Source of the DNA: Patescibacteria group bacterium
Lineage (GTDB): Bacteria; Patescibacteriota; Patescibacteriia; Magasanikbacterales; GWA2-37-8
Length of the DNA stretch: 40,129 nucleotides
Assembly (NCBI GenBank): GCA_004321885.1
Contig: SCQK01000006.1
Location: 1 to 40,129, forward strand
Reading direction: 5' to 3'
Position numbers and translations under genes: made by a program. Under the pieces are notes generated by a model that was not told where the DNA came from, did not search any database, and saw only the letters and a list, made by a program, of their open reading frames with translations. This document shows positions 2,381-38,121 of this stretch, piece by piece. Position 1 is the stretch's first letter, and every line of letters starts with the position of its first letter.

Positions 2381-2689
2381 ATGGAAGTGCAATATTTTGA
2401 TGATCAACTCGAGGAATTCATCAAAAATTTGGAAGAATCGACTGTGGCTAAAGTCGTGAGAACAGTCGAGCTTTTGCGCCGATTTGGCCATCTGCTCGGG
2501 ATGCCTCATAGCAAAAAAGTTGGTAGTCATCTGTATGAATTACGCATACATGGAAAGCAGAAAGTCAGGATACTCTACACTTTTAAGGGTAGCGTCATTA
2601 TGCTTCTACATGGTTTTATCAAAAAATCTTCCAGAATTCCTACCAAAGAATTGCAAACTGCGCTCCAGAAGTTGGCGCGCTTGACATAA
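2381..2689 (+). CDS. higB: type II toxin, HigB/RelE-like (Gp49-like, COG4679 family)
   Basis: 102-aa ORF immediately upstream of an XRE-HTH gene; sequence pattern (..HLYELRIHG..VRILYTF.G..IMLLHGFIKKS) is typical of HigB/Gp49-like mRNA interferases. Confidence 0.75.
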   Translation: MEVQYFDDQLEEFIKNLEESTVAKVVRTVELLRRFGHLLGMPHSKKVGSHLYELRIHGKQKVRILYTFKGSVIMLLHGFIKKSSRIPTKELQTALQKLARLT

Positions 2690-2710
2690 TATAACATATA
2701 TGTTATATTA
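2681..2710 (+). promoter_or_regulatory. sigma70-like promoter (TTGACA-17-TATATT) overlapping a perfect 24-bp palindrome TAATATAACATATATGTTATATTA; putative HigA operator
   Basis: -35 at 2681-2686 (overlaps the higB stop), 17-nt spacer, -10 at 2704-2709; the palindrome 2687-2710 is centred in the spacer/-10; higA ATG at 2718 implies a leaderless or near-leaderless transcript. Confidence 0.55.
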
Positions 2711-2717
2711 GTTTTAT

Positions 2718-2990
2718 ATGAAATCTTTTACAGCGTTAAAAAAACAACTGTTGAAAAATAAAAAGGTTAAAAAGGCATACGATGAACTAGGTCCGGAATT
2801 TGCGTTGGCTAGCACACTTATTGAGAAACGAATCATACGAGGGCTGACCCAAGAGGCTTTAGCAAAAAAGGCCGGCACCAAACAATCCGCGATTGCCCGT
2901 TTAGAATCGGGAACTTATAACCCCTCATTTGCTTTTTTGAAAAAAGTTTCCAAGGCGTTGGACGCGCAGTTAATGGTGACTATTCATTAA
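2718..2990 (+). CDS. higA: HTH XRE-family antitoxin HigA
   Basis: 90 aa; C-terminal helix-turn-helix IRGLTQEALAKKAGTKQSAIARLESG; paired downstream of higB. Confidence 0.8.
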   Translation: MKSFTALKKQLLKNKKVKKAYDELGPEFALASTLIEKRIIRGLTQEALAKKAGTKQSAIARLESGTYNPSFAFLKKVSKALDAQLMVTIH

Positions 2991-3012: not shown

Positions 3013-3041
3013 ACCGCGATGATTGACATCGCGGCTTTTTT
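3013..3041 (+). terminator. rho-independent terminator
   Basis: CCGCGATG-N5-CATCGCGG stem followed by CTTTTTTG. Confidence 0.7.
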
Positions 3042-3153
3042 GTATTACTAATAGTTGTTGCTCTTTGCGCGTTCCTCAATTTTGAGGAAAACCTGGGCCC
3101 CGGGCAGGGGCAAAAGGCTTTTCGGGCGATAACAAGCTTGAAAGGAGACGACC

Positions 3154-4077
3154 ATGGGTAAGAGTTATGAGGAAGTTTGGCGTGGGCTCACCGGCGGCCA
3201 GCAGGAAGCGCTTCAGCGCAAGCTTTGGCTCGCGGCTGGCGGCCAGGATACAGGTGAGGAAGGACTCGCGACCATCTTGCGAGATGAGCAGAAAATCACG
3301 CTCGTGGACGCGATAGTGAAGCTCGCGGACAAGCGCGGCCGCTGCATCCCCATTCCGGGGATGCGGGGCAGGGTCGTGGACGCCAATCGCAATTTCCGGC
3401 TTGGCCATCTCGAGATCAGCACCGTGGGCATCCTCTACAATCTTCGGCAATTTTTCGCGCCGGAGATGAAGTTTCCTTCGGAAGCGGAGTTTGCGCGGCG
3501 TGTTGCCGATCTGATCGCGCTGGCGGAGAAGGATAAGCAGACGAAGAACCTGCTCAAGGGGGCGTACTGGCCTTTGTGCTTTCCGCAACTCGCGGTTGTG
3601 GACTATGGCCGTTCGCTGGAGGAGATTTTCCTGCCGGCGGTCAAGCGTTCGTACGAGGCCGCGTTCCCCGGTCGGAATTTCAAGAACTACCGCGCGGATG
3701 AGCTGGTCGAACAGGTGACCGTCGCCGCGGGCACTCGTCACGAGATGCTCCTCGCAAAGATGGCCGAGGGTCCGGTCGTCGGCCTTTGGTTCGCCAATCC
3801 GCTCCAGGGTTTTGGCATCCATGCCGACCGCGAGCAAATCGCTGCGTTCCCCGAGAGTTTCATACTCTCTGGCGCGATTGACACCGCGACCGCGATGGTG
3901 GCTGACCCGCAGACGCTCTGTCGGAGCTACAAGACCCCCAGCTACGTCTGTGCTGCCAACGTTTGGTATCACAACAGCTCGCCGTACTTCCGGGCCGATG
4001 ACGACAAGCTCTACTTCAGCGTGGGTGTCATCGACGCCAGCGACTTCAGCTCCGGTGGTTTGCTCTTTCTCGGGTAG
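3154..4077 (+). CDS. hypothetical protein (compositionally GC-rich, probably horizontally acquired)
   Basis: 307-aa ORF with protein-like composition, preceded by AAAGGAGA SD. The opposite-strand ORF 3076..3972 is Arg-rich junk typical of the antisense of GC-rich coding DNA. The segment is visibly GC-richer than its flanks. Confidence 0.55.
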   Translation: MGKSYEEVWRGLTGGQQEALQRKLWLAAGGQDTGEEGLATILRDEQKITLVDAIVKLADKRGRCIPIPGMRGRVVDANRNFRLGHLEISTVGILYNLRQFFAPEMKFPSEAEFARRVADLIALAEKDKQTKNLLKGAYWPLCFPQLAVVDYGRSLEEIFLPAVKRSYEAAFPGRNFKNYRADELVEQVTVAAGTRHEMLLAKMAEGPVVGLWFANPLQGFGIHADREQIAAFPESFILSGAIDTATAMVADPQTLCRSYKTPSYVCAANVWYHNSSPYFRADDDKLYFSVGVIDASDFSSGGLLFLG

Positions 4078-4173
4078 TCCAGTTTAGTTGTTCCTTCCTC
4101 TTTCCCGTTCGTTCGCGAACGGGATCCCACTTGAGTTTTTATAATGATGAAGATTCAAGTGGGATGAAAAACT

Positions 4174-4205
4174 CCACCCTTTATTCCTCCCCTATAAGGG
4201 GAGGG
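4174..4205. repeat. palindromic element A, copy A3
   Basis: CCTCCCCTATAAGGGGAGG core (4186-4204), 15 nt from element B1. Confidence 0.75.
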
Positions 4206-4212
4206 ATTTGGT

Positions 4213-5232
4213 TTAAGCAAGGGATTGCTTCGTCGCTTCGCTCCTCGCAATGACAGTAGAAGGTTTAATGGTTGAGAATTTGGCCAGCATTTTTTTGATA
4301 CCATTTTTATCCAAGATTCCTTTGAGCGAGCCGACTTCGGAAATCACTCCGCAACTATTAGCGATGCCCCAGCTTAGGGCGAGCGGGATCTCGTGTCCGT
4401 AAAAGCGAGCCGATAGATACCCGGCCGAAAAAGCGTCGCCGGCGCCGGTTTTGGCCACCACTTTTACCGGAAAACTTTCCAAGCGCCAGACCTCATCCAC
4501 GTTGCCGGCCCAGGCCCCGTTGGCCGCGTCGGTTATTACCACTTCCTTGGCGCCATCATTTAGCAGTTTACGTATCAAACCGGCGACTGATTTGGCTTTG
4601 GCCAACGTCAGGTCGCTGATTTTTTCCGCCTCTTCCAGATTCACTATTAAAACATCGGTTCGTTTCAACATCTCGCGTACTTTTGGCAAGGCGTTTTTAA
4701 TTTGGAAACTGCCCGGATTAAAAGCTAAGCGCGCTGTGCCGTGTTTGTCCAAAAAAGCCAATAATTTTTCTTGCAAATTTTCAAACCCTTCGCTCAAGCT
4801 GGTGTAATAAATCCAGTCAACCGGCGGCACGGTTCGCGGCCAGTCGTATTTTCGTTTTTGATGGTAAGATAAAATAGTGCGTTCGCCCTTGAAATTCAAA
4901 ATAATGGAATAGCGGGTAAGAGTCCTGGGGTCTTGGCTGGTCAAACTTGTGTCCACGTTGTTTTTTTTCAGCTCTTCCAAGATCAGCTTGCCGTTGGCGT
5001 CGGTGCCTAGCGAAGTAATGGCCGCGCATTTGAGCCCCAGCTTGGTAGCGCCCACAGCCACATTAGCCGCGTTGCCTCCGAGTGATTGAAAGCTGCCGGT
5101 AATGGGCACCTTACTGGCGTAGTCCAAACATAACTGACAATTTTCGTGATTAACATCGCATTGGACCGTTGCGTCATCTATAAAAACATGAGTGTCAATC
5201 ACCGCGTCGCCGATGGTAATGAGGTTGTACAT
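4213..5232 (-). CDS. PfkB-family carbohydrate kinase (ribokinase-like)
   Basis: 339 aa; N-terminal GxxxxD and C-terminal TGAGDAFSAGYL PfkB signatures; SD GGGAGGGG (part of element A4) 7 nt upstream of the ATG; the last ~13 codons (VIARSEATKQSLA) are encoded by palindromic element B1, so the native C-terminus is probably shorter. Confidence 0.8.
   Translation of the reverse strand: MYNLITIGDAVIDTHVFIDDATVQCDVNHENCQLCLDYASKVPITGSFQSLGGNAANVAVGATKLGLKCAAITSLGTDANGKLILEELKKNNVDTSLTSQDPRTLTRYSIILNFKGERTILSYHQKRKYDWPRTVPPVDWIYYTSLSEGFENLQEKLLAFLDKHGTARLAFNPGSFQIKNALPKVREMLKRTDVLIVNLEEAEKISDLTLAKAKSVAGLIRKLLNDGAKEVVITDAANGAWAGNVDEVWRLESFPVKVVAKTGAGDAFSAGYLSARFYGHEIPLALSWGIANSCGVISEVGSLKGILDKNGIKKMLAKFSTIKPSTVIARSEATKQSLA
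4221..4256. repeat. palindromic element B, copy B1 (one arm)
   Basis: GGGATTGCTTCGTCGCTTCGCTCCTCGCAATGACAG; forms the C-terminal codons of the PfkB kinase ORF. Confidence 0.75.
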
Positions 5233-5239
5233 ATATTTA

Positions 5240-5297
5240 CCCCTCCCTCGCCCTCCTCCCGAAACAAGTTCGGGACAAGCTCTTGTAAAGGGGAGGG
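5240..5297. repeat. palindromic element A, copy A4 (with an internal 25-nt insertion forming its own hairpins)
   Basis: CCCCTCCCTCGCCCTCCTCCC-GAAACAAGTTCGGGACAAGCTCTTG-TAAAGGGGAGGG; supplies the SD for the PfkB kinase (minus strand). Confidence 0.7.
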
Positions 5298-5304
5298 TAA
5301 TTGT

Positions 5305-6252
5305 TTACCCTTTCCATTTATTAAGATATTCAATGGCCGCCAGGGCCGCAATAATCCCCTGCCCGGTGGAGATGCCGATTTGTTTGTAGGGGATATTGGT
5401 CACGTCGCCGGCCGCGAAAATACCCGGGCAGTTGGTGCGGCATTTGTAGTCCACCACGATTTGTCCGATTTTATCTTTTTCAACGCAGTCAATGAATTGT
5501 GAATTGGGAATCTGGCCGGCGTGCACCATTACACCCTGGACTTCAATCGTTTTTTCTTTTCCTTTCGCGTCCGCGTATTTCAGTCCGCTCACTCTGCCTT
5601 CACCGACTATTTCCTCGGTTGTGGCCCCGTAAATTATTTCCACATTGGACAGTTCTTTTACTTTGTCTATCAAGATATTTTCGCCCTTTGGAAAGCCGCC
5701 GCTTGTTTCCGGCGTGTTCTGGTATTTGCTGATTAAAAAAACTTTTTTGGCCAAATGCGTCATCATCAGCGCTGATTCCAATGCCGCGTTGCCCGAACCG
5801 ACAGTGGCCGTAACCTTGCCCTTAAACAGCGGCCCGTCGCAAACAGTGCAATAGGTAACGCCTTTTTGGTACAATTCTTTTTCACCCGGCACTTTCAAAT
5901 GGCGCGGGTGAATGCCCGTGGCGATAATCACGGTTTTGGTTTCGTATTTTTTTTCTTCGCCCTTGGTGTTTTTGACGATGACAACGTGATGTTTTTTTTG
6001 CGGTTCAATGCTTTCCACGCGCCAGCCCTCGTCTATTTTCACGCCATAAAATTTCACGTGCTCATTGAATTTTCGCGCCAATTCAAATCCTTGGATTTCA
6101 AGAATACCGGGCCAGTTGTTGACTACGCCGGACAGGGCCACTTCGCCGCCGATGTTATCGGTGACGATTTTGAAATTAAGTTTCCGGCGCGCCGCGTAAA
6201 TGGCCGCGCTGCTGCCGGCCGCCGCCGCGCCGATGATTAGCAGGTCTAACAT
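5305..6252 (-). CDS. trxB: thioredoxin-disulfide reductase
   Basis: 315 aa; FAD motif GAAAAGSSAAIY, redox-active CTVCDG, NADPH GxGxxA motif. Confidence 0.85.
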   Translation of the reverse strand: MLDLLIIGAAAAGSSAAIYAARRKLNFKIVTDNIGGEVALSGVVNNWPGILEIQGFELARKFNEHVKFYGVKIDEGWRVESIEPQKKHHVVIVKNTKGEEKKYETKTVIIATGIHPRHLKVPGEKELYQKGVTYCTVCDGPLFKGKVTATVGSGNAALESALMMTHLAKKVFLISKYQNTPETSGGFPKGENILIDKVKELSNVEIIYGATTEEIVGEGRVSGLKYADAKGKEKTIEVQGVMVHAGQIPNSQFIDCVEKDKIGQIVVDYKCRTNCPGIFAAGDVTNIPYKQIGISTGQGIIAALAAIEYLNKWKG

Positions 6253-6911
6253 ATATTTGTCATTGCAGTGAGCTCTTTATACGTTTTTTTAATGTCTTTC
6301 GCCATCACAAGGGCGCTGCCGACGCAGAAAATATCCACGCCCCATGATTTTATTTCGGCGATGTTGCTACTTTTAATCCCCCCGTCCACGGCGATGAGCG
6401 GCCGATACCCCCTCCCCTGTCCTCCCTCTAAAAGGGGGAGGGAAACCAATGTCTTAACTTTCTCTTTCACCTCGGGCAGAAATTTCGCTCCTTGTTTGCC
6501 CGGGCGCACTGTTAGAAACAAAACCAAATCCACTAAATTCAAATATGGCTCTATGGCCGACAGCGGCGTTTCCGGATTAAGAGCGATGCCCGCTTGCCAG
6601 CAGTTACCATGGATGGCGGCGATGATTTTTTCGGGATCGTCAGCTGTTTCAATATGAAATATCACCCGAAAAACATTTTTTACTTCTTTCCATTTTTCCA
6701 TTTCCGCCAGCGGGTCGGCCGCCATCAAATGCAATTCCCATTTCAAACCGCTTTTCAGGCCGTTGATTTTTTCAATATCGCCGAATGATTTATTCGGCAC
6801 AAAGACCCCGTCCATCACGTCTATCTGGGCGTAATCGCAGACGCCTTTCAGTTTTTTCGCTTGCGTCGCGAATTCGTCAAAAGAGGAAACAAGTATGGTC
6901 GGGATAATCAT
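6246..6911 (-). CDS. rpe: ribulose-phosphate 3-epimerase
   Basis: 221 aa; IIPTILVSSF...IDVMDGVFVPN motif and C-terminal VDGGIK; an in-frame copy of element A (6408-6444) encodes an inserted LEGGQGRGYRP segment. Confidence 0.8.
   Translation of the reverse strand: MIIPTILVSSFDEFATQAKKLKGVCDYAQIDVMDGVFVPNKSFGDIEKINGLKSGLKWELHLMAADPLAEMEKWKEVKNVFRVIFHIETADDPEKIIAAIHGNCWQAGIALNPETPLSAIEPYLNLVDLVLFLTVRPGKQGAKFLPEVKEKVKTLVSLPLLEGGQGRGYRPLIAVDGGIKSSNIAEIKSWGVDIFCVGSALVMAKDIKKTYKELTAMTNIC
6408..6444. repeat. palindromic element A, copy A5, in-frame inside rpe
   Basis: CCCCCTCCCCTGTCCTCCCTCTAAAAGGGGGAGGG; translated on the minus strand as LEGGQGRGYRP within ribulose-phosphate epimerase. Confidence 0.75.
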
Positions 6912-6912
6912 A

Positions 6913-7353
6913 CTATTCAGCCGTCTGTATTTTATTCAATCTGCGTTTGTATCTGTCTTCGCCGCTAAACTCGGTTTTCAAAAATGTTTTCACAATAGCG
7001 GCCGCGTGTTCGTCGGAAAGTATTTTTCCAGCCAAGCATAACACGTTGGCGTTGTTGTCCCGGCGCCCCATTTCCACGCCTTTGATGTTGTAGCCCAAAA
7101 TCGCCCGCACGTCGCGCACCTTGTTGGCCGCGATGCACATTCCCTGCCCGCTGGCGCATATCAAAATGCCGAAATTGTCGTCGTCTTTCGCCACTTCTTC
7201 GGCCAAAGGCAAAGCAAAGTCCGGGTAATCGTCGGTTTCCACGTATTCACCGGCGCCCATGTCTTTGGCCTCTATGTTTAGCTCGTTTTTCATGTAGCGC
7301 AAGAGATGTTTTTTGAGTTGATAGCCGCCGTGGTCGGCCGCGATGTAGATCAT
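6913..7353 (-). CDS. rpiB: ribose-5-phosphate isomerase B
   Basis: 146 aa; IAADHGG and ICASGQGMCIAANK motifs of RpiB/LacAB; 1-nt spacing to rpe. Confidence 0.85.
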   Translation of the reverse strand: MIYIAADHGGYQLKKHLLRYMKNELNIEAKDMGAGEYVETDDYPDFALPLAEEVAKDDDNFGILICASGQGMCIAANKVRDVRAILGYNIKGVEMGRRDNNANVLCLAGKILSDEHAAAIVKTFLKTEFSGEDRYKRRLNKIQTAE

Positions 7354-7390
7354 AGTGTTGGTATATTATTGTATTCATTGTACCTTTTTC

Positions 7391-7419
7391 TTGACTATTG
7401 TTCAAGCTTGCATATATTA
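7391..7419 (+). promoter_or_regulatory. putative sigma70 promoter for the CBS gene
   Basis: TTGACT at 7391-7396, ~16-17-nt spacer, TATATT/TATTAT -10; divergent from rpiB. Confidence 0.4.
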
Positions 7420-7455
7420 TACCTGTATAGGGCCATAATTTTTAATTTTAATCGT

Positions 7456-7908
7456 ATGCGAGTAGCAGACATCATGGAAAAAAATGTGATTACCGTGACC
7501 AAGGATACGCCATACGAGGAAGTGGCGAAAATTTTGTACGAGCATAATATCAGCGGGGTGCCGGTTTTGGATGAAGGCGAAAAAATAGTCGGCATTGTTT
7601 CGGAAAAAGATATTTACCGCGTGTTGTATCCATATTATAAAAGTTATTACGAACACCCGGAGAGTTACACGGATTTGGAAGAACGGGAATGCAAGGCCAG
7701 CGAAATTAAGGACCATCGCGCCGAGGTGTTTATGTCAAAAAACGTGGTGCCGATCAAGCCCGAGGACCCGGTGATGCTGGCCGGCTCCATCATGCTGGCT
7801 AAAAACATCAGCCGGTTACCGGTGGTGGAAAGCGGCAAGGTGGTGGGCATTATCAGCCGCAAGATGATCTACCGCGCGATTTTGAAAAGATGTTTTGACT
7901 TTAAGTGA
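7456..7908 (+). CDS. CBS-domain pair protein
   Basis: ORF 7306..7908; internal ATG at 7456 (MRVADIMEKNVITV...) begins two tandem CBS motifs (ISGVPVLDEGEKIVGIVSEKDI ... ISRLPVVESGKVVGIISRKMI); the upstream 50 codons are AT-rich promoter sequence. Confidence 0.75.
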   Translation: MRVADIMEKNVITVTKDTPYEEVAKILYEHNISGVPVLDEGEKIVGIVSEKDIYRVLYPYYKSYYEHPESYTDLEERECKASEIKDHRAEVFMSKNVVPIKPEDPVMLAGSIMLAKNISRLPVVESGKVVGIISRKMIYRAILKRCFDFK

Positions 7909-8005
7909 GGCCTTTACTTTTAATTATAAACAGGTAAAATACGAGCGGTAGCCGCAGGCTACTGTTTTTGAACCCAAAAAACAGACCAGAAGAGGAGAGG
8001 ATACA

Positions 8006-9046
8006 ATGGACCGGATGCCAAAGATTGCTTTGATAGTGGGGAGCGGCGGGTTTGAAGGGCAGGAGGGGTTCGCGGAGGAGTGGCGGTTTTACCCGCTGAC
8101 GCCATTTGGCTGGCCATCGGCTCCGATTAAGGTCGGCCTGTTCAATGGCGTCAGAATCGCTCTGGTTCTGCGTCATGGCGAAGGGCACACCTTGCTGCCA
8201 TCCGAGGTGCCGTATCAAGCGAACATCTATGCCCTGAAAATGCTGGGCGTTGATACGGTCGTGGCTCTCACCACTGTCGGCAGTTTGGACAGAAGGTTCA
8301 AGCCTGGCGACCTCGCTATCGTGCGGCAGATGGTGGACCACACCAATGGCCGGCCGTCCACGTTCTTTGGACGGGGAATCGCGGCGCATGTTGTCATGGC
8401 TGACCCAGTGTGCCCTCACATGTCCGACCTGTTGTACCAGACGGCGAAGTTCTGCGGTCTGGTGCACATTCGGAAAGCCGTTGAAACCGCTCTGCATGAC
8501 AGTGCGGTTCTCAAGGTGATGGAGGGGCCGGCATTTTCCACCGGCGCCGAGTCGCAGATGAATTACAGAAACCCTCTGCCAAATCTCATCGGCATGACGG
8601 CCATGCCCGAGGTCAAGCTGTTTCGCGAGGCCGAGATGCGCGTGGTCTATCTGGCGATAATCACCGACAACGACTGTTGGTGCGAAAGGGATGTGGTCAG
8701 CGCTGGATTGGTGGCGGAGAACTCGGGCAAAGTGAGTCCGATCGTGCGTAAGCTGCTGGCTCGGGTGCTCGTGGCGTTCCAAGCCAAAAGGAAGTGGCTG
8801 GCCCGAAGGAAACGTCGGCCAGACAGATGTTCTTGTGTGTCGGCGTTGGACGGTCCGGCCATCGCGACCGACTTGGCCCACATCAGCGATGGGGTGAAGC
8901 GCCGTCTGCATCCGATTCTCAAGCGTCGGCTTGCGCTGGGGAGTAAGGAGCAGTTACCCAGCATCAGTTCGGAAGAGATGTGTCTGGAGCGTCTGGCACA
9001 TTCCCGGGTCAGGCCGAAGCTGGCGGCCGACATGCAACAGCAGTAG
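8006..9046 (+). CDS. mtnP: S-methyl-5'-thioadenosine phosphorylase-like (PNP/MTAP family) with a basic C-terminal extension
   Basis: 346 aa; RHGEGHTLLPSEVPYQANIYALKMLGVDTVVALTTVGSL, MEGPAFSTGAESQMNYR and MTAMPEVKLFREAE..Y..I..TDNDCW match MTAP/PNP-II signatures; the C-terminal ~90 aa are Arg/Lys-rich and not part of the canonical fold; the segment is GC-rich. Confidence 0.75.
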   Translation: MDRMPKIALIVGSGGFEGQEGFAEEWRFYPLTPFGWPSAPIKVGLFNGVRIALVLRHGEGHTLLPSEVPYQANIYALKMLGVDTVVALTTVGSLDRRFKPGDLAIVRQMVDHTNGRPSTFFGRGIAAHVVMADPVCPHMSDLLYQTAKFCGLVHIRKAVETALHDSAVLKVMEGPAFSTGAESQMNYRNPLPNLIGMTAMPEVKLFREAEMRVVYLAIITDNDCWCERDVVSAGLVAENSGKVSPIVRKLLARVLVAFQAKRKWLARRKRRPDRCSCVSALDGPAIATDLAHISDGVKRRLHPILKRRLALGSKEQLPSISSEEMCLERLAHSRVRPKLAADMQQQ

Positions 9047-9175: not shown

Positions 9176-9208
9176 CCCCTCCTTAATCCTCCCCTTATTA
9201 AGGGGAGG
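9176..9208. repeat. palindromic element A, copy A6 (SD of ileS)
   Basis: CCCCTCCTTAATCCTCCCCTTATTAAGGGGAGG; GGAGG lies 6 nt before the ileS ATG. Confidence 0.8.
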
Positions 9209-14153: not shown

Positions 14154-14225
14154 GCGGGTGTAGCACAATGGTTAGTGCGTGTGCTTGCCAAGCATAAGAC
14201 GAGGGTTCGATTCCCTTCACCCGCT
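14154..14225 (+). tRNA. tRNA-Gly (anticodon GCC)
   Basis: Acceptor GCGGGTG/CACCCGC, D-arm GCAC..GTGC, anticodon loop TTGCCAA, T-loop GGTTCGATTCC. Confidence 0.8.
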
Positions 14226-14226
14226 C

Positions 14227-14299
14227 AGCGGGGTAGAGCAACTGGCAGCTCGCAGGGCCCATAACCCTGAGGTTCCCGGTTCAAGTCCGGGCCCCGCAA
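14227..14299 (+). tRNA. initiator tRNA-fMet (anticodon CAT)
   Basis: Anticodon loop CCCATAA; three consecutive G:C pairs closing the anticodon stem (GGG/CCC), a 1:72 A*A mismatch and an A11:U24 pair, all hallmarks of bacterial initiator tRNA; starts 1-2 nt after tRNA-Gly. Confidence 0.75.
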
Positions 14300-14307
14300 C
14301 AACGTAG

Positions 14308-14364
14308 GACGAGCGGAAGTGTTCCGCCTCTGTTCTGACATGGTCAATCCATGCCAACAACGAG
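14308..14364 (+). repeat. direct repeat DR1 (~55 bp) bounding the Fic cassette, immediately 3' of tRNA-fMet
   Basis: GACGAGCGGAAGTGTTCCGCCTCTGTTCTGACATGGTCAATCCATGCCAACAACGAG; ~90% identical to DR2; contains the inner palindrome GCGGAAgtgTTCCGC. Confidence 0.7.
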
Positions 14365-14469
14365 TAGGCTAACGATGACCCTCAGAACGAGGGTCATTTG
14401 GTTTCAGATTAGTCAGCAACTCTTGACCTATCTTATATAATCATATATACTCAAAATATAAGATGATAT

Positions 14470-15549
14470 ATGCTGAGAATCCAAAATCGCGGCCGGGGGA
14501 ATCGCCTTGACCGCCGACTAGCCAATCTTCCGTCCGGAGTCTGGTCCAAAATCGCGCAGGTAGATGAACTTAAGGGCCAGTGGATTGCCGGGGCTGAACT
14601 TTCGTCCCAGGTTTTGGGCCGCTTAAAGCGGTCGGTTTTGATTACCTCCGCCGGTGCTTCTACTCGCATTGAAGGCGCGCGACTATCCGACGAAGACGTC
14701 GAAAAAATGATGCGCGGCATTGATATTCAGAAATTCAGAGATCGTGACAAGCAAGAAGTGAAAGGGTATCATGAGCTTCTGGGGAATATGTTTGATTCTT
14801 GGAAGAGTTTGCAGTTCTCCGAGAACGCCATCAAACATTGTCACAAAGAACTCCTCAAATATGTGGAGAAAGACGAGGCGCATCGGGGCAGATACAAGAA
14901 GCAAGAGAATCGCGTGCAGATGGTAAATGCGGCCGGACAACCCGTGAGCGTGCTTTTTGATACCACACCGGCATATTTGGCGCCCAAAGAAACGCAGGAG
15001 CTCGCACAGTGGACGCGGAAGGCTCTGGAAACCGGCCAACATCATCCGTTGTTAGTCATCGGTAACTTTGTCGTTGAGTTCTTGGCCATCCATCCTTTCA
15101 CCGATGGTAACGGGCGTCTGTCGCGCGTTCTCACCAATCTGCTATTGCTCAAAGCGGGGTACCTTTATGTTCCATACGTATCGCACGAGAAGCTCATCGA
15201 GGACAACAAGCCAGATTACTATGTAGCCCTGCGGCGCAGCCAGAGGACGTTCAGGTCAAAGAGAGAAGACATTGCCCCGTGGCTCCATTTTTTTCTGGAT
15301 GTCGCGTTCAAGCAGGCGCAAATGGCGGTTGACTTGCTGTCCAAAGAAAACATTGAAAAACTGTTATCGCCAAAGCAACTGCAAGTCTGGCAGTACTTGC
15401 AGGGAGTAATTGAAGCGACAGCCGGAAAGATAGCCAAAGCCACAGGCGTCGCGCGTCCAACTATCAACCAGGCAGTGGACAAGCTCTTACGCTTGAAGAA
15501 GGTGGAACGCATCGGCCTTGGGCCCACGACAAGATACCGGAAGTTATGA
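14470..15549 (+). CDS. fic: Fic/DOC family protein with a C-terminal winged-HTH
   Basis: 359 aa; canonical Fic motif HPFTDGNGRLSR; C-terminal KIAKATGVARPTINQAVDKLLRLKKVERIG HTH; GC-rich relative to the genome. Confidence 0.85.
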   Translation: MLRIQNRGRGNRLDRRLANLPSGVWSKIAQVDELKGQWIAGAELSSQVLGRLKRSVLITSAGASTRIEGARLSDEDVEKMMRGIDIQKFRDRDKQEVKGYHELLGNMFDSWKSLQFSENAIKHCHKELLKYVEKDEAHRGRYKKQENRVQMVNAAGQPVSVLFDTTPAYLAPKETQELAQWTRKALETGQHHPLLVIGNFVVEFLAIHPFTDGNGRLSRVLTNLLLLKAGYLYVPYVSHEKLIEDNKPDYYVALRRSQRTFRSKREDIAPWLHFFLDVAFKQAQMAVDLLSKENIEKLLSPKQLQVWQYLQGVIEATAGKIAKATGVARPTINQAVDKLLRLKKVERIGLGPTTRYRKL

Positions 15550-15604
15550 CGAGCGGAAGTATTCCGCCTCTGTTCTCTGACATGGTTAATCCATGCCAAC
15601 GACG
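15548..15604 (+). repeat. direct repeat DR2
   Basis: GACGAGCGGAAGTATTCCGCCTCTGTTCTCTGACATGGTTAATCCATGCCAACGACGG; starts at the Fic stop codon; followed by a degenerate partial copy GGGCGGAAGTATTTCGCCGCTCG (15608-15632). Confidence 0.7.
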
Positions 15605-15705
15605 GATGGGCGGAAGTATTTCGCCGCTCGCCACAGGGCAGATTGGCCAATCATAGATTAAAGGGCATCGTATTAGACACCCTTTTGTTGTCCGCATAAA
15701 TCAAA

Positions 15706-15751
15706 AACTCCCGCACAAGCGCTCTGCCGAAGCAGTTCTTGTGCGGGAGTT
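15706..15751 (-). terminator. strong hairpin terminator (14-bp perfect stem) for the minus-strand hypothetical gene
   Basis: AACTCCCGCACAAG-N18-CTTGTGCGGGAGTT, flanked by an A-run on + (T-run on the minus strand). Confidence 0.65.
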
Positions 15752-15794
15752 TATCGTTCGAGGACTTAACGCATTAAGCTAATGCATAGTGGTC

Positions 15795-16442
15795 CTACTT
15801 GTACGCAAGGAAGGCAGTGCCTCTTCCCCATCCACCCCGAGCCCACCAACTGACGACCAATTCGAGGGTGGGGTGTGGAACCGAAGCATCCACCTCGCCC
15901 AACGCACGCGCATGAAAGCCAGGATTGGGACCCCTGACGACAACTGCGGGCACGCGAGGCCCATCCTCCGTGCTGGGGAAATCAGGATCTTCCGGTTTTG
16001 TGCCCTCCCAGACAGAACCCAGAGCTATCATGCAGTGGCACGCACAGTAGATCTCAAACCAGAATGGGTCGTTGAAGGCGAGCAGGTGTTCGATCCCGGC
16101 CGGCTTGAAACCGACACAGCGAATGTGTTCCACCGCATGCTCTGAACACGTGTCGTGGTTAGACACGAAGACCTTCAACTCCACCGTTTTTTTCCCAGTG
16201 CCCTTGATCGGGAAGTGCTCATAGGTGAGGTCACTATCCACCTTGCCGTAATGGCCATCGGAGGTCATCTCCCCCAGCGAACGGCTGTAGTCGATGGTGA
16301 CTGTTTTCTTCGAGTGTAGAGGATGAAGTACCTCCACCTTGCGGGGGTCCCGCAGATATGCCTGCAGGCCTTCCCTGGTGACCCGGCCGGACTTGATTTG
16401 TGCATGGAGTTCTGTGAGCTGCTCAACAGTCGGGGTAGGCAT
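15795..16442 (-). CDS. hypothetical protein (GC-rich cassette gene)
   Basis: ORF 15795..16502; the internal ATG at 16442 (MPTPTVEQ...) is preceded by GGGAGAG SD; Cys/His-rich middle region (HDTCSEHAVEHIRC ... YCACHC); no family recognised. Confidence 0.55.
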   Translation of the reverse strand: MPTPTVEQLTELHAQIKSGRVTREGLQAYLRDPRKVEVLHPLHSKKTVTIDYSRSLGEMTSDGHYGKVDSDLTYEHFPIKGTGKKTVELKVFVSNHDTCSEHAVEHIRCVGFKPAGIEHLLAFNDPFWFEIYCACHCMIALGSVWEGTKPEDPDFPSTEDGPRVPAVVVRGPNPGFHARALGEVDASVPHPTLELVVSWWARGGWGRGTAFLAYK

Positions 16443-16614
16443 GGATTCTCTCCCTGCATCCGTTGGTAAAAGCACCAACACATTCGGCTTCATGCCGAAC
16501 ATGTTGGAGGTTAGCCAGCGGACACACTGTGGCCAGGAGCCAATCTCCCAGCCTTATTTCTAAGCCGGAGTGGGCTCAAAAATAGGGCAAGGAGATCATT
16601 GTAAAGAGCAGACC

Positions 16615-16643: not shown

Positions 16644-16740
16644 TGATAGCGCTTCCAAAAGATACGGCTTTGAATATATGAAGAACAAACCCTAATTGCT
16701 TTCTCAAGAATTTTGGTTATCCCCAACGAGGGCCGTTTTT

Positions 16741-16764
16741 ACGTAGTCCTTCCATGCCAACACA
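16741..16764 (+). repeat. truncated third copy of the cassette direct repeat (DR3)
   Basis: ACGTAGTCCTTCCATGCCAACACA shares the ACGTAG(G) lead and the TCCATGCCAAC core of DR1/DR2. Confidence 0.5.
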
Positions 16765-16768
16765 CACA

Positions 16769-16800
16769 AAAGAACCCCGATTAAATCGGGGTTCTTTTTG
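16769..16800 (-). terminator. rho-independent terminator (bidirectional hairpin) downstream of the AI-2E transporter gene
   Basis: AGAACCCCGA-TTAAA-TCGGGGTTCT followed by TTTTTG. Confidence 0.7.
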
Positions 16801-19414: not shown

Positions 19415-21259
19415 ATGTTGAAATTAAAAATTTTCTTCCTGCCGTTTTTGGCCATAATATTTTTTGGCGGCGCGGGCGCTGCGCGGGCTTTGGATTTTAC
19501 GCCGCCGCCTTTTCGCGACCCCTCGTATGGCGCTAAATACGTTGGCCAGTCCGCGGCCGACCCCATAGCAATGAACGCGGGCGAGAGCAAGACAGTGACA
19601 GTTAAATTCAAAAATACGGGCCAGACGGCCTGGCCGGCCTCGGGGAAAAATTATGTTTCCGTTTACACGATTGCTCCGAATTACCGGCCCAGCCTGTTCA
19701 CGGGGCAAGGCTGGCCGGCGGAAAGTCAGGCCGCGAAAGTTACGGCCGCGGTTTCATCCGGCAAAATCGGAGAATTCAAAATCAAATTAACCGCGCCCAA
19801 AACAGCGGGCGAATACATCGAACGTTTTAATTTAGCCGCCGAAAACAAAACTTGGATAAAAGGCGGTTACTTTTACCTTAAGGTAAAAGTAACCGCGAAC
19901 GCGCGCGCGAGCGGCAACTCGGCTCGGGTGGATGACGAAGCCGCACAAATTAACAAAGAATACCGGGCGCATTTACTTACGTTTTCCGCGCGGAGCGTGC
20001 AGGCCAAGGGCGGCGAGCCCATTTTTTTTAAGGTGCGTTATATCAACGACGGCACAGCCGCCTGGAAAAATTATTTATGGCAGGAGGCAGGTTCGAGCGC
20101 CGGCAAAATAGCCGTAGCATCCGCGGCCGGCGGCAGAGTTGCCATAGCCGATACGAGCTGGCTGTCTGCCGCCAAAATTAAAACCGAAGAAAAAACTGTC
20201 GCCCCGAACGAGCCGCTTGATATTGAATATAGTTTTAGAGCGCCGGTAAAAATCGGTGAATACGCGGCCCGATTCCAGCTGACGGCCAACAATCACACCT
20301 TGGACGGGGGGACTTTGGAATTGCCCGTAACAGTCACGGCCGACGCGCCGGTTGACTACCAGGAGCCGGTGTTTACGAGTACCCGCCGGCTTATCAGCGA
20401 GCCCAATATTCGCGTGGGCCTGTATAAAGCGGATAAAGAAGTGAAATTTTTATCGGATTTTCCTTATCAGGTTTACAGCGGCGAGGTTTTAATGGGCACG
20501 CTTTTCGCCCAGGCGCCGGCCACGCTTTCTTATGCCGGCGGCGCATACACATTCGCCAGCGCTGATTTGAATTTCAGCGCCAGCCAGCCCGTTCGCTTTG
20601 TGCCCGATGACATAAAATACTATTTTACTTTGGTAAATTACGACCGTCGCGCGGCCTGGAAGGGCAATAAAAATTTCAACGTGTATCGCGGGGCCATGGA
20701 ATTCAAGTATTCCCCCAAAAGCGACGCGCCGTTTGTGATAAACGAATTGCCCTTGGATTTGTACGTGGCCGGCATTGCCGAAACCTCCAATGGCGCGGCC
20801 ATGGAATACATCAAGGCCCTGCTGGTTGCCGCGCGCACCTATGCCTATTATCAAATCAACAATGGCGTGCCGGCGGATAAGCGCACTTACGACGTGGTGG
20901 CCACCACCGCCGACCAGCTTTATTTGGGGTACAATTCCGAGGCGTTGATGCCGCGCGTGGTGCAGGCGGCTCAGGCCACTTACGGCGAGATGGTCACCTA
21001 CAACGCCGCGCCGGTGATTACGCCGTATTTTGGCCATAGCGACGGCCGCACCCGCGCCTGGACAGAAGTGTGGGGCGGCAGCGCCAAGCCATGGCTGGTC
21101 GGCGTGGAAGCGAAATATGACGCCGGGCAAAAAATGTGGGGGCATGGCGTGGGCATGAGCGCCCAAGACGCCTCTCAACGCGCCGACAAAGACGGCTGGA
21201 CCTACGACCAGATTTTGCAATATTATTACACCGGCACGGAAACGGAAAAAATTTATTGA
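19415..21259 (+). CDS. SpoIID/LytB-domain protein with N-terminal signal peptide and tandem Ig-like repeats
   Basis: 614 aa; C-terminal ALLVAARTYAYYQ ... YDVVATTADQLYLGYNSE ... PVITPYFGHSDGRTRAW is the SpoIID/LytB amidase-enhancer domain; the N-terminal ~330 aa contain 3-4 repeats of a ~100-aa module (GESKTVTVKFKNTGQTAW..., GEPIFFKVRYINDGTAAW..., IGEYAARFQLTANNHT). Confidence 0.8.
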   Translation: MLKLKIFFLPFLAIIFFGGAGAARALDFTPPPFRDPSYGAKYVGQSAADPIAMNAGESKTVTVKFKNTGQTAWPASGKNYVSVYTIAPNYRPSLFTGQGWPAESQAAKVTAAVSSGKIGEFKIKLTAPKTAGEYIERFNLAAENKTWIKGGYFYLKVKVTANARASGNSARVDDEAAQINKEYRAHLLTFSARSVQAKGGEPIFFKVRYINDGTAAWKNYLWQEAGSSAGKIAVASAAGGRVAIADTSWLSAAKIKTEEKTVAPNEPLDIEYSFRAPVKIGEYAARFQLTANNHTLDGGTLELPVTVTADAPVDYQEPVFTSTRRLISEPNIRVGLYKADKEVKFLSDFPYQVYSGEVLMGTLFAQAPATLSYAGGAYTFASADLNFSASQPVRFVPDDIKYYFTLVNYDRRAAWKGNKNFNVYRGAMEFKYSPKSDAPFVINELPLDLYVAGIAETSNGAAMEYIKALLVAARTYAYYQINNGVPADKRTYDVVATTADQLYLGYNSEALMPRVVQAAQATYGEMVTYNAAPVITPYFGHSDGRTRAWTEVWGGSAKPWLVGVEAKYDAGQKMWGHGVGMSAQDASQRADKDGWTYDQILQYYYTGTETEKIY

Positions 21260-24388: not shown

Positions 24389-25414
24389 TTATAATAAATT
24401 TTGTGTTTTTGGCGCGTCGTGCCTCAGATGTCTGTAGGCCGCGGCGGTGGCTTTGCGGCCGCGCGGGGTGCGTTCCAAAAAGCCGATTTGCAAAAGGAAC
24501 GGTTCGCAGATGGTTTCAATGGTGTCCATTTCTTCGCTGATGGCCGCGGCCAGGGTGTTTAGCCCGGTGGGGCCGCCGCTGAATTTTTCTATCAAAGCGC
24601 CGAGCAGGCGGCGGTCAATGTCATCCAGTCCGTATTCGTCCACGGCCAGCATATCCAGCGCGGCCGAGGCGGTTTTTTCGTTCACGCCCTCTTCGTCTTT
24701 TACCTGCGCGAAGTCGCGGATGCGGCGCAAGAGCCGGTTGGCGATGCGCGGGGTGCGGCGGCTGCGTTTGGCGATGACCGAGGCGGCTTCGGGCTCAAGC
24801 CGGACTCCCAAGATGGTGGCGTTGCGGCGCAGAATTTTTTCCACGTCTTCGTGTTCGTAAAAATTGAGGTGAAAAGTGTGGCCAAAGCGGTCGCGCAGAG
24901 GAGCCGAGAGCATGCTCATTTTGGTGGTGGCGCCGATGAGGGTGAAGCGAGCCAATGGCATGCGGATACTGCGGGCGGTCGGTCCTTTGCCGATGATAAT
25001 ATCCAAAACATAATCCTCCAAAGCCGGGTAAAGCACTTCTTCTATGCTTTTGTTGAGTCGGTGAATTTCATCAATAAACAGCACGTCGCCCTCTTGCAGA
25101 TTGGAAAGTATGGCGGCCAGGTCGCCCACCTTTTCCATGGCCGGTCCGGACGTTATTTTTATGCTGTTGTTCATTTCATGGGCGATAATATGCGCCAGGG
25201 TGGTTTTGCCCAAACCCGGGTTGCCGTAAAGCAAAACATGTTCCAGATTTTCGCCGCGCTGTTTGGCTGCCTGCATGGAAATGCCGAGGTTTTGTTTGAT
25301 CTGTTCCTGGCCCACAAAATCGGCCAATTGCTTTGGGCGCAGGGTAATATCAAAAATCACGTCGTCTTGCTCGACTTGGGGTTCTATGACTCTGGGTTCG
25401 GCTTCGGTGTCCAT
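24389..25414 (-). CDS. ruvB: Holliday junction branch migration helicase RuvB
   Basis: 341 aa; Walker [12 protein letters not shown], Walker B DEIHRL, sensor/arginine finger and C-terminal winged helix; SD from element A7. Confidence 0.9.
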
Positions 25415-25425
25415 AATTGCGTTTT

Positions 25426-25460
25426 CTCTCCCCTTGATAAGGGGAGAGCGAGAGAGGGGT
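25426..25460. repeat. palindromic element A, copy A7 (upstream of ruvB)
   Basis: CTCTCCCCTTGATAAGGGGAGAG + CGAGAGAGGGGT. Confidence 0.7.
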
Positions 25461-25487: not shown

Positions 25488-25516
25488 TTGACAATATCGC
25501 AAAAATGTGCTATTAT
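25488..25516 (+). promoter_or_regulatory. consensus sigma70 promoter (TTGACA-17-TATTAT) for the 25646 gene
   Basis: TTGACA at 25488-25493, 17-nt spacer, TATTAT at 25511-25516. Confidence 0.55.
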
Positions 25517-25645
25517 AGGCCGTTCTTTTTATAATAATCCTAGTTTTCTTTTAGCCTACTTTAGCCAAAGTAGATGAAAAGAAGGCTGGAATAGTAAGTA
25601 CCATTCTCGGCGAGTTTTGGCGAAACCCCCAGAAAGGAGACCGTC

Positions 25646-26281
25646 ATGATGAATCTTGTGAAGAAGACCTACCTGGTTTGCGAGTTCGCTCCTGCCTTCC
25701 TGGACATCGTGGATGACGGGGAGCGCGGCGGTTTGTATCTGCCGGGCATCATGGATGCGTTGAAGCAGCTCAGAGAGGTTGAGATCTCATCTCGTGATCT
25801 CTCTCAACTCAAAATCCCGGAAGGTGTTTACCGCTTTCGCTTCTTTGACTGCCTGGAGGCGATTGTGAAAGAAGCGGGGGAGAAAGTCGTTCTCCGTAGC
25901 AAGGAGATGAGCCATTCCCCGTGGCATTACTCGGAGGAACAGGGCCGCCTGTTCACGCCGGACATGCCTGACTTCCTCACCGAGGAGGAAGACAAACGGC
26001 TGGACGAAGCTGGTCTGACCTGGGAGAAAAACCACGACGAGCTGGAGAAGTGGTGTCTCCGAGAGGCGGATCAGAAACTACTCACGCGCCTTCGACAGGT
26101 AAGGTGTATCGTGAAGCGCGCGTTCGTTCTCTTCCGTCTTCCGGACACTACGTCCTATGACCAGGACACGGTTTCCTTGGAGGACAGCGACATCTTCCTC
26201 CCCCGTGGGGAGATCGAGATCGACAACATCGTCGACCGTTGGGAGAACCCCAACGCCAGACATTTCTGCGTTCCTTGCTAG
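25646..26281 (+). CDS. hypothetical protein (GC-rich island gene)
   Basis: 211 aa; SD AAAGGAGA 7 nt upstream; acidic, no recognised motif; GC-rich relative to flanks; followed by a weak hairpin + T-run (26361-26386). Confidence 0.5.
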   Translation: MMNLVKKTYLVCEFAPAFLDIVDDGERGGLYLPGIMDALKQLREVEISSRDLSQLKIPEGVYRFRFFDCLEAIVKEAGEKVVLRSKEMSHSPWHYSEEQGRLFTPDMPDFLTEEEDKRLDEAGLTWEKNHDELEKWCLREADQKLLTRLRQVRCIVKRAFVLFRLPDTTSYDQDTVSLEDSDIFLPRGEIEIDNIVDRWENPNARHFCVPC

Positions 26282-26395
26282 CATCCCAATCTCCGCGTTA
26301 AGTCGCGGAAGGAGGTGCCTCGCCGGAATCTGTGCAAGTAGTTTCCGGCCAATCAAAAAGCAGATTTCAACGAAGTCTGTTTTTTGTTTAACCTC

Positions 26396-26424
26396 TTGAA
26401 AAACGGCTCTTTTCGTGCTATAAT
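26396..26424 (+). promoter_or_regulatory. consensus sigma70 promoter (TTGAAA-17-TATAAT) of the two-gene AbiEii-like module
   Basis: -35 at 26396-26401, spacer 17, -10 at 26419-26424; first ATG at 26443. Confidence 0.6.
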
Positions 26425-26442
26425 ATCAATAGAAGATATTGT

Positions 26443-26667
26443 ATGAATGTAGCTCTCAATATCAAAAATTTATTATGGGATGTTGACGCAAAAAAAGTGG
26501 ATGCAAGCAAACACAAAAGTTTTTTAATTTCGCGAATTTCTGAAAAAGGCGGTACGCGAGAAATAGCCTGGTTGCGCCGCCAATATTCGGATAAAGACAT
26601 CAAGAAAATCGTGGCGAAAAGCCGCAATGTTTCGGCAAAGACAAAAAATTTTTGGAAGCTGTTTTAA
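26443..26667 (+). CDS. small protein (74 aa) translationally coupled to the AbiEii-like nucleotidyltransferase; putative antitoxin/partner
   Basis: Lys-rich 74-aa ORF directly downstream of a consensus promoter; its stop TAA is immediately followed by the ATG of the next gene (TAATATG). Confidence 0.5.
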   Translation: MNVALNIKNLLWDVDAKKVDASKHKSFLISRISEKGGTREIAWLRRQYSDKDIKKIVAKSRNVSAKTKNFWKLF

Positions 26668-26668
26668 T

Positions 26669-27298
26669 ATGTTTTATCCAGAGGCGCTGACCGCGGAATC
26701 AATCGCTTTAATAAAAAAAATTAATGCGAGCAAATGGCTGTCTGATTTTTATTTGGCCGGCGGTACGGGTTTGGCTTTATGGTATGGCCATCGGCAATCG
26801 GTTGATTTGGATTTTTTTAGAAAAAGCGATATTGCCACCAAGCAATTGATAAAAAAATTGTCTTCGCTCGGCAGATTCAAATTATTGAATGAAGAAGAAA
26901 ACACGGTGGAGGGGATACTGGAAAAGGTGAAAGTTAGTTTCATGACTTATCCGTATGGTTTGTTGCGCAAGCGTCAGCCGTATGATGGCGTTATCTTTTT
27001 AGCAGAACCATTGGATATCGCCGTCATGAAAGTCGGAGCGATCGCCGACAGAAATACGAAGAAAGATTTTATTGACCTGTATGTTTTTTTACGGCGCGAG
27101 AACATGAGTTTAAAAAATTTGTTATCGCATCTGCGAAAAAAATTCAGCCGCGTGAATTACGATATTTTTCATTTATACAAATCCCTTGTCTATTTTGAGG
27201 ATGCCGACAAAGAACCTATGCCGAGGATGTTTATTGATTTAAAATGGGAAAAGGTCAGGCGATTTTTTAAAGACGAGGTTAGGAAGCTGGTGGCATGA
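26669..27298 (+). CDS. nucleotidyltransferase of the AbiEii/AbiGii (DUF1814-like) toxin family
   Basis: ORF 26627..27298, start re-chosen at 26669; LAGGTGLALWYGHRQSVDLDFF matches the GGTAL..HR.S.DLDF nucleotidyltransferase signature of AbiEii-type proteins. Confidence 0.6.
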   Translation: MFYPEALTAESIALIKKINASKWLSDFYLAGGTGLALWYGHRQSVDLDFFRKSDIATKQLIKKLSSLGRFKLLNEEENTVEGILEKVKVSFMTYPYGLLRKRQPYDGVIFLAEPLDIAVMKVGAIADRNTKKDFIDLYVFLRRENMSLKNLLSHLRKKFSRVNYDIFHLYKSLVYFEDADKEPMPRMFIDLKWEKVRRFFKDEVRKLVA

Positions 27299-31850: not shown

Positions 31851-31884
31851 ACCCCTCCCTCGCCCTCCCCTTATAAAGGGGAGG
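31851..31884. repeat. palindromic element A, copy A8 (upstream of the pilin cluster)
   Basis: CCCCTCCCTCGCCCTCCCCTTATAAAGGGGAGGG. Confidence 0.8.
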
Positions 31885-38086: not shown

Positions 38087-38121
38087 TCCCTCCCCTATTA
38101 GGGGAGGGGCAAGGGGAGGGG
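38087..38121. repeat. palindromic element A, copy A9 (SD of TrbC-like paralog 1)
   Basis: CCCTCCCCTATTAGGGGAGGG + GCAAGGGGAGGGG, 7 nt before the ATG at 38128. Confidence 0.8.

Follow-up and report, generated by a model that had tools for sequence, protein, structure and literature searches.

The window analysed here is an entire 40,129-bp contig from a metagenome-assembled genome (MAG) of the Patescibacteria, which belong to the candidate phyla radiation (CPR); this study concerns the gene at positions 3154-4077 of its plus strand, which encodes a 307-aa protein. The genes of the window are cellular: RuvC, RuvB and a class II ribonucleotide reductase (DNA repair and replication), IleRS (translation), RpiB, Rpe, a PfkB kinase and TrxB (sugar and redox metabolism), and type IV pilin-like proteins. 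The focal gene is bracketed on the left by the terminator of a HigA-like gene, which belongs to a toxin-antitoxin pair directly upstream, and on the right by three hairpins within 135 bp (4078-4212), beyond which lies a convergent PfkB sugar-kinase gene (Table 1). The RNA fold of positions 4070-4215 has a free energy of -62.9 kcal/mol (z = -6.65), and the last of the three hairpins, a repetitive extragenic palindromic (REP)-like element, is probably a bidirectional terminator shared with the PfkB gene. The context of the ribosome-binding site (RBS), GAAAGGAGAC, is common to the focal gene and to a 211-aa open reading frame (ORF) further along the window. No consensus promoter was found upstream of 3154.

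A preliminary description of this DNA had listed the gene among several GC-rich islands, each bracketed by hairpins or terminators, in an AT-richer genome. The background is not AT-rich, since the window has a mean GC of 50.6%, but the gene does stand out from it. Across 41 ORFs (mean GC 0.51; mean GC at third codon positions, GC3, 0.61) it ranks first, with a GC of 0.606 and a GC3 of 0.760 (z = +2.3 each). It is followed by 8006-9046 (0.594, GC3 0.726), the ORF at 15795-16502 (0.569) and, mildly enriched at most, 25646-26281 (0.557, z 1.1); the Fic gene at 14470-15549, which had been counted with the islands, is average (0.518). The tetranucleotide profiles agree with the earlier selection: in 1-kb profiles the four segments that it named are the four strongest outliers (15501-16500, z 3.4; 3251-4250, z 3.3; 25501-26500 and 8001-9000, z 2.9 each). 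Neither GC nor codon usage is uniform within the window, and in codon usage 25646-26281 and 3154-4077 are the most deviant genes, the focal gene having the second-largest distance. Stretches of 500 bp that are as GC-rich also occur within ordinary genes, at 20751-21250, in RuvB (24501-25000) and in the ribonucleotide reductase (29001-29500). Adenine occupies 4.9% of third codon positions (A3) in the focal gene, against a comparison value of about 17-19%. The antisense ORFs of the GC-rich segments are, as had been noted, long and rich in arginine (9.5-12.8%). A long, arginine-rich antisense ORF is the usual shadow of a sense strand that is GC-rich and poor in A3.

Table 1. Positions of the focal gene, its flanking elements and the other segments discussed in the text.
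Feature	Position	Strand	Remarks
307-aa ORF	3154..4077	+	TAN33773.1, EPN28_01315; Patescibacteria family of variable (target) proteins of diversity-generating retroelements
Equivalent of the variable region, W271 to stop	3964..4077	+	codon alignment to pairs of variable region and template repeat
Shine-Dalgarno sequence AAGGAG	3142..3147	+	6 bases before ATG 3154; read from the sequence
Intrinsic terminator of HigA-like gene (left bracket)	3014..3034	+	8-bp stem, 6 G-C pairs, T run
G+C-rich hairpin TCCCGTTCG-TTCG-CGAACGGGA	4103..4124	.	9-bp stem, 4-nt loop; 26 nt past stop; no T run
Second, long hairpin TCCCACTTGA...TCAAGTGGGA	4125..4165	.	RNA fold
REP-like palindrome CTCCCC-TATAA-GGGGAG	4183..4207	.	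terminator scan
HigB-like (Gp49) toxin and HTH_3 antitoxin pair	2381..2990	+	directly upstream; PF05973 2.3e-20, PF01381 4.7e-14; GC 0.40-0.41
MTAP-family nucleoside phosphorylase	8006..9046	+	PF01048 2.2e-28; GC 0.594; ~88-aa C-terminal extension
Fic (SoFic-like) cassette	14305..15611	+	gene 14470-15549; PADLOC SoFic 8.7e-42
235-aa ORF	15795..16502	-	GC 0.569; strongest tetranucleotide outlier, z = 3.4
211-aa ORF, EPN28_01440	25646..26281	+	near-orphan; own promoter, strong RBS

The protein family and its diversity-generating cassettes

The 307-aa protein has no match in Pfam (E <= 0.01), NCBIfam (E <= 1), PADLOC or PHROGs, and a sequence profile search of the PDB returned nothing below E 0.19. 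The earlier statement that it matches nothing recognisable is thus accurate for curated libraries, but it does not extend to protein collections at large, where we identified 129 homologues at E <= 1e-3. All of these are about 300 aa long and without a precomputed Pfam domain, and Patescibacteria-type MAGs are the source of nearly all of them. Of those on long contigs the nearest are P0003 and P0002, which are 57% and 55% identical over 97-99% of the query (E 1.4e-92 and 5.5e-94, respectively). No near-identical second copy was present among 5.8 billion proteins, and the cluster to which the protein belongs has one member. A scan of the genome collection with a narrower alignment added 33 more loci. 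In the family alignment a conserved body is followed by about 30 highly variable positions, after which the C-terminus always reads ...SGGLLFLG.

The predicted structure of the protein (mean pLDDT, the model's own confidence measure, 94) has a helical N-terminal part and a C-type-lectin-like fold at its C-terminus (residues 138-307). Structural matches of the model include OvoA, SenA, EgtB and many animal C-type-lectin domains; no significant match came from Foldseek searches of the PDB and BFVD, where GHKL-ATPase noise with a probability of 0.04 or less ranked highest. No signal peptide or transmembrane segment was found in the protein.

A few relatives carry labels other than Patescibacteria: L028 lies on a 3.59-Mb Thermodesulfovibrionales chromosome (OY970295.1), and its GC excess over the flanks is almost nil (+1.8 points); the label is Gammaproteobacteria for L004, L011 and L014, and Gastranaerophilales for L018. 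Those low-GC contigs that bear the gammaproteobacterial label look like CPR bins with a wrong label.

The genomic setting of the relatives gives insight into the function of the family. Downstream of the gene at the loci of P0003 and P0002 (L001 and L002) lie an oppositely oriented bAvd gene and an RVT_1 reverse transcriptase (RT). In L001 the 122 nt that end the gene, the variable region (VR), recur 569 nt downstream as a template repeat (TR) with 87% identity, and every mismatch falls on an adenine of the TR. Read in codons this template encodes WQSADYSLNFKANDDEANFDNRNLDANDNYSGSVLFVG, and its AAC and AAG codons coincide with the positions that vary in the gene. A diversity-generating retroelement (DGR) is defined by just these marks, mismatches restricted to template adenines and variation at the corresponding codons. 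In all, 13 loci have Avd and RT directly downstream, and an adenine-biased TR was found 270-550 nt past the stop codon in every one of them. The mismatches at bases other than adenine number 0-6 of 10-23 in 12 of these 13 loci and 11 of 30 in L002. A further 13-14 or so loci, each with 2 kb or more of flank on the downstream side, are devoid of a TR, as is the window, and the RT is absent within 10 kb in about half of the family loci that have sufficient flank.

The cassettes of the relatives show how the family operates. The TR duplicates the final ~120 nt of the target gene; its RNA is copied by the RT with errors at adenines, and the resulting cDNA replaces the VR. In this way some 10-15 codons, most of them AAC in the TR, are re-randomised on the surface of the C-terminal C-type-lectin-like domain, which presumably binds a ligand. 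In the structural model the VR does lie in the C-type-lectin-like fold, as expected of DGR targets, whose VR sits in a variation-tolerant C-type-lectin or Ig fold. DGRs are abundant in the Patescibacteria, where they form a clade of their own, and their targets are usually without recognisable domains (PMC8144416, PMC5758913) and typically without transmembrane segments (PMC8144416).

Most members of the family have an additional feature at this end of the gene. After the VR and stop codon there are 2-8 copies of a YTTGG motif in heptad spacing, (TTCTTGG)n, where about one would be expected, and these are followed by a terminator hairpin. The heptads are present after the VR in 12 of the 13 DGR-linked relatives and in most of the RT-less ones, and after the TR there are only 0-1 motifs. 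From this distribution we propose the heptads as a candidate for a cis element that is specific to the VR and serves homing in this clade of DGRs. They were seen in L003-L033, for example at 10856-10920 of L007. Separately, L014 (~1028-1070) and L017 (10871-10913) carry a GC-rich palindromic insert of about 40 nt, GCCCGCCCG...CGGGCGGG, in or just before the heptad flank, which looks like a small mobile hairpin element.

The copy in the window: orphan or remote target

To relate the window gene to these cassettes, we aligned its 3' end by codon to the VR/TR pairs of L001, L002, L031, L027, L025, L026, L007 and L004. The window codons TAC 3994, CGG 4000, GAT 4006, TAC 4021, GTC 4036, AGC 4048 and TTC 4054 fall opposite AAC or AAG of the TR. 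Compared with the nearest foreign TR, that of L001, the window VR differs at 14 of 22 adenine sites (64%) and at 19 of 65 other sites (29%; Fisher p = 0.0055). The proven targets L001, L002 and L031 fall in the same adenine-biased range when they are compared with foreign TRs. The adenine-site bias of the divergence indicates that the window VR has been through adenine mutagenesis. The ORF is otherwise intact and well conserved, keeping 64 of the 75 positions with 85% or more conservation in the family, a value in the range seen for its divergent subclade.

Several observations weigh against this assignment or against the more specific conclusion that we draw from it. TR, RT and Avd are all absent from the window, so that the standing of the gene as a DGR target rests on homology and on the imprint in the VR. 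Repeat finding and an adenine-tolerant sliding comparison of both strands found no TR-like copy in the 40-kb window; the best candidates for the last 131, 91, 71 and 61 nt, again on both strands, have 42, 25, 20 and 11 non-adenine mismatches, respectively, which is noise. None of the 40 window ORFs scanned matched RVT_1 or bAvd, and tblastn of the window with the RTs of L001 and L002, and for Avd, gave nothing. In addition, two relatives fit a TR that lies elsewhere. L014, which has no RT within 10 kb, fits the TR of L007 perfectly at non-adenine sites (0 of 65 mismatched) and differs from it at 16 of 22 adenine sites. In a Portnoybacteria MAG with two target copies, L003 (WJLL01000040.1) and L034 (WJLL01000039.1), whose VRs differ at 15 positions, the RT-less L034 fits the L003 TR on the other contig, with mismatches at 19 of 29 adenine sites and 4 of 91 others. 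Provided that the binning is correct, both copies fit the single TR beside the L003 RT, and L034 would be a non-adjacent target. The fits of L034 and L014 show that remote targets exist in this family.

Two accounts of the window copy are consistent with its imprint. In the first, a DGR diversified the gene at an earlier time, and the product is now most likely a binding protein of fixed specificity; we lean toward this uncoupled orphan, with a little more confidence than an even chance would give. In the second, the gene is a live remote target, and a DGR elsewhere in the ~1-Mb genome rewrites positions 3964-4074 in trans, a serious possibility to which we give somewhat less than an even chance. 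Non-adjacent and remote targets are documented (PMC5758913), and the frequency of RT-less loci in the family, the fits of L014 and L034, the intact and conserved ORF and the adenine-site bias of the VR are all as expected of a live target. Against this, the flank of the window VR is not that of a typical family member. The 120 nt that follow it contain one YTTGG motif where 1.1 are expected, whereas most relatives, DGR-linked and RT-less, have 2-8. The stop codon is followed by TCC, where TGC is usual. No other family member diverges as far in the 5' constant part of the VR (W-Q/R-S-x-x-x-S-L, TGGCAGTCC...TCGCTC), which in the window is also shorter by one codon. No RT carrying the EPN28 tag of this genome was found among the best 120 of more than 5,878 RT relatives, a weak point since most of the matches are untagged. 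A scan of JGI metagenomes for the 3' end of the VR gave 0 matches.

The window VR is followed by a hairpin, at 4103-4124, that resembles the GC-rich inverted repeat found 3' of the VR in the DGR of the Bordetella phage (Wu 2018). No hairpin was seen at the matching position elsewhere in the family.

Base composition and the less likely explanations

The composition of the gene was then considered in the context of the family. In all 32 of the 32 loci compared, the GC of the target gene is above that of its flanks, by a mean of 11.7 points (sd 4.6); the value for the window is +10.2. Target GC follows flank GC (r = 0.77, p = 2e-7) over hosts that range from 31 to 55% GC. In the same 13 cassettes the Avd and RT genes lie below the flanks, by 6 and 8 points, respectively, which shows that the cassette as a unit is not GC-rich. 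Along the target the excess is +8 to +12 points over the first 80% and +17 to +22 points in the VR; this rise fits the GC-rich segments that are described as flanking the mutagenised part of TR and VR (PMC5758913). At third codon positions the targets have 0.55 times the A of neighbouring genes (lower in 28 of 29 loci), 1.67 times the C and 0.83 times the T. Two unrelated families of CPR targets are GC-rich as well: L037 (4373-5077) has a GC of 0.614 in a locus of 0.421 with an RT of 0.355, and L038 (4154-5065) has 0.541 against 0.496. At L037 the public gene call took a 355-aa antisense ORF (4319-5386) and not the real 234-aa target.

High GC and very low A3 are thus an intrinsic trait of the family, equilibrated with each host, and not a mark of recent transfer. 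That the gene at 3154-4077 belongs to a family of DGR targets and that its GC is a trait of this family are conclusions that we hold jointly with good confidence, apart from the question of whether the copy is orphaned or remote. Any link between adenine mutagenesis and this bias in GC and A3 across the family is speculation. Expression-linked codon bias was considered as a sufficient cause of the high GC3 and rejected: at the L002 locus the GC3 of EF-G is 0.683, against 0.958 for the target. The bias could stem from selection against adenines open to mutagenesis beyond the VR, or from a bias in the repair that follows homing of the cDNA. The wider proposal, that Patescibacteria DGR targets are poor in sense-strand adenines at synonymous sites along the whole ORF because of the DGR mechanism, or that the YTTGG heptads are a target-recognition element, appears doubtful to us at present. 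If the bias were caused by the DGR, GC islands with long, arginine-rich antisense ORFs would be a composition-only signature of DGR targets, orphans included; and if the heptads were a target-recognition element, their absence in the window would mark a target that has escaped from diversification.

The preliminary description had named the gene a candidate for recent acquisition, possibly from a host or a phage; on this reading, which may be widened to another lineage, the high GC would be the unameliorated signature of the donor. The gene is indeed the top compositional outlier of the window, it adjoins an AT-rich toxin-antitoxin module, and its genomic neighbours differ in every related locus, with no neighbour of the window gene conserved beside any relative. 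Horizontal movement of DGRs is also known, and a deviant GC content has served as one sign of it (PMC5758913). A constant GC offset that tracks the host is, however, the opposite of what recent import predicts, and the deviation of the cassettes' own RT and Avd genes runs the other way. The identifiable relatives come from Patescibacteria-type MAGs, the nearest being 57% identical, so that no near-identical donor is at hand; neither the searches of phage DNA and proteins, with 50,697 phage records and PHROGs among them, nor a scan of 2.9 million viral contigs yielded a relative. The flanks of the gene show no integrase, tRNA or direct repeats, the upstream toxin-antitoxin pair being all that was found at its borders. 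We therefore consider recent acquisition improbable. Past mobility of the gene is plausible, given its association with a retroelement, the lack of synteny between genomes and the adjoining AT-rich HigB/HigA module; this much of the earlier idea survives, but the composition is not evidence for it.

More improbable still is an enzymatic role of the FGE/EgtB/PvdO type (formylglycine-generating or sulfoxide-synthase-like) for the protein, an explanation suggested by the shared fold. There is no Pfam match to the FGE-sulfatase family and no PDB sequence match, identity to such enzymes is 2-10%, the FGE-like fold is itself the scaffold of DGR variable proteins such as TvpA, and the C-terminal 40 residues are TR-templated in 13 relatives. 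Only the fold is shared, and this candidate was rejected.

Least probable of all, to the point of being negligible, is that the region is non-coding or that it is the antisense ORF of 298 aa (3076-3972 on the minus strand) which represents the gene: a long open frame does exist there, and the public call at L037 did choose the antisense frame, but each of the 129 homologues aligns with the whole length of the plus-strand frame, a strong RBS (3142-3147) precedes it, GC3 (0.76) exceeds GC1 and GC1 exceeds GC2 in that frame, and the antisense product, with 12.8% arginine, has the character of a shadow ORF.

Other segments of the window and comparison with known systems

The remaining segments singled out by composition have different explanations. 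The gene at 8006-9046, labelled MTAP-like in the earlier description, is an ordinary nucleoside phosphorylase, matching TIGR01694 MTAP at 1.6e-62 (below the family cutoff) and MTAP structures in the PDB down to 4.5e-55. As far as its sequence and setting tell, it is a metabolic gene within its neighbourhood, since the region 4213-9046 next to the focal gene encodes pentose and nucleoside salvage functions (a PfkB-family kinase, TrxB, Rpe, RpiB, a CBS protein and the MTAP-like phosphorylase).

The Fic segment fits the idea of an acquired cassette better than the focal gene does. It lies directly after tRNA-Gly(gcc) (14154-14226) and tRNA-Met (14227-14300), and the gene is bracketed by direct repeats of ~65 nt at 14305-14369 and 15545-15611, with a weaker copy at 16725-16772. 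The adjacency to tRNA genes and the 65-nt repeats are good evidence that this is an inserted cassette, and it looks like a tRNA-adjacent defence cassette. A second cassette may hold the 235-aa ORF at 15795-16502, for which no family match was found in Pfam, NCBIfam, PADLOC or PHROGs, a search confined to these libraries and made without a homologue search.

The earlier remark that two of the islands have consensus promoters of their own holds for the 211-aa ORF, with TTGACA-17-TATTAT at ~25489-25517, but not for the 307-aa gene. An indexed search of the 5.8 billion proteins returned only the 211-aa protein itself, and 24 weak relatives, similar over its N-terminal ~100 aa, came up in a full HMMER scan; a Pfam scan of the relatives of 100-200 aa found no domains. 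Its AlphaFold2 single-sequence model has a pLDDT of 37 and is uninformative.

The hairpin brackets noted around several genes are explained by recurrence of the REP-like palindrome between genes, and this element is not specific to islands, although the terminator and the three hairpins around 3154-4077 are as had been reported. The pattern CTCCCC-N5-7-GGGGAG has 7 matches in the window, where 0 are expected, and 6 of the 7 are intergenic (1094-1112, 4187-4203, 9189-9207, 25428-25446, 31865-31883 and 38090-38106); there is a degenerate copy at 6407-6446. The match at 26198 lies within the ORF at 25646-26281 and has the look of chance. The palindrome probably acts as a bidirectional terminator.

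The window also has two AT-rich islands (GC 0.39-0.41), at 2381-2990 and 26440-27298, and both are toxin-antitoxin modules. The second contains an AbiEii nucleotidyltransferase toxin, which is preceded by a small ORF (~26444-26667) with a promoter-like sequence of its own.

Taken together, these data would turn a hypothetical protein in an apparent island into a binding protein diversified by a retroelement and now without its diversifier, carried by an ultra-small and probably host-attached bacterium. They also carry a caution for the detection of islands, as a GC excess of 10 points and deviant codons are here properties of a family and not evidence of transfer. Should the contrast in composition between the target and the RT and Avd genes prove general, it could aid in finding DGR targets and in avoiding antisense mis-annotation of the kind seen at L037. 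In that case it could also, together with the repeats in the VR flank, point to unexplored constraints on adenine mutagenesis and homing in the CPR clade of DGRs.

Among proteins outside the family, the FGE-sulfatase-like domains (those of FGE and PvdO, and those at the C-termini of EgtB, OvoA and SenA) share the fold of the 307-aa protein and have no sequence match to it, and no sign of catalytic residues was seen. The variable proteins of characterised DGRs, namely Mtd of Bordetella phage BPP-1, TvpA of Treponema denticola, TaqVP of Thermus aquaticus and the archaeal AvpA, likewise have a C-type-lectin fold. Compared with these, the window protein has no detectable sequence similarity, its N-terminal region differs and contains no recognisable tail-fibre, lipoprotein or other module, and the gene has no TR, RT or Avd beside it. 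The flank of the VR differs too, as the relatives of the window gene have YTTGG heptads where an initiation of mutagenic homing (IMH) site and a GC-rich inverted repeat have been described. The non-adjacent and remote targets of Treponema and of the Legionella type (Wu et al. 2018) resemble the window gene in having no RT near the target, and within the family the L034/L003 pair and L014 behave as remote targets do in fitting TRs elsewhere; unlike such targets, the window copy has no known TR, and the repeat of the VR flank is missing.

The closest likeness is to the DGRs of the Patescibacteria themselves ('clade 2' in PMC8144416; the 'CPR set', ungrouped or UVR1-6, in PMC5758913). The relatives of the window gene share with them the host group, the order target - TR - Avd(-) - RT(+), targets without a recognisable domain, transmembrane segment or signal peptide, and more than 5,800 related RTs. 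The VR class of the family has the consensus WQSADYSLNFKANDDKLNFDN..NANDNYSGGLLFLG, and the window copy differs from these DGRs in being uncoupled from any cassette. The gene at 3154-4077 is thus a new, unannotated member of the DGR targets of the Patescibacteria, found without its diversifier and largely explained by known biology.

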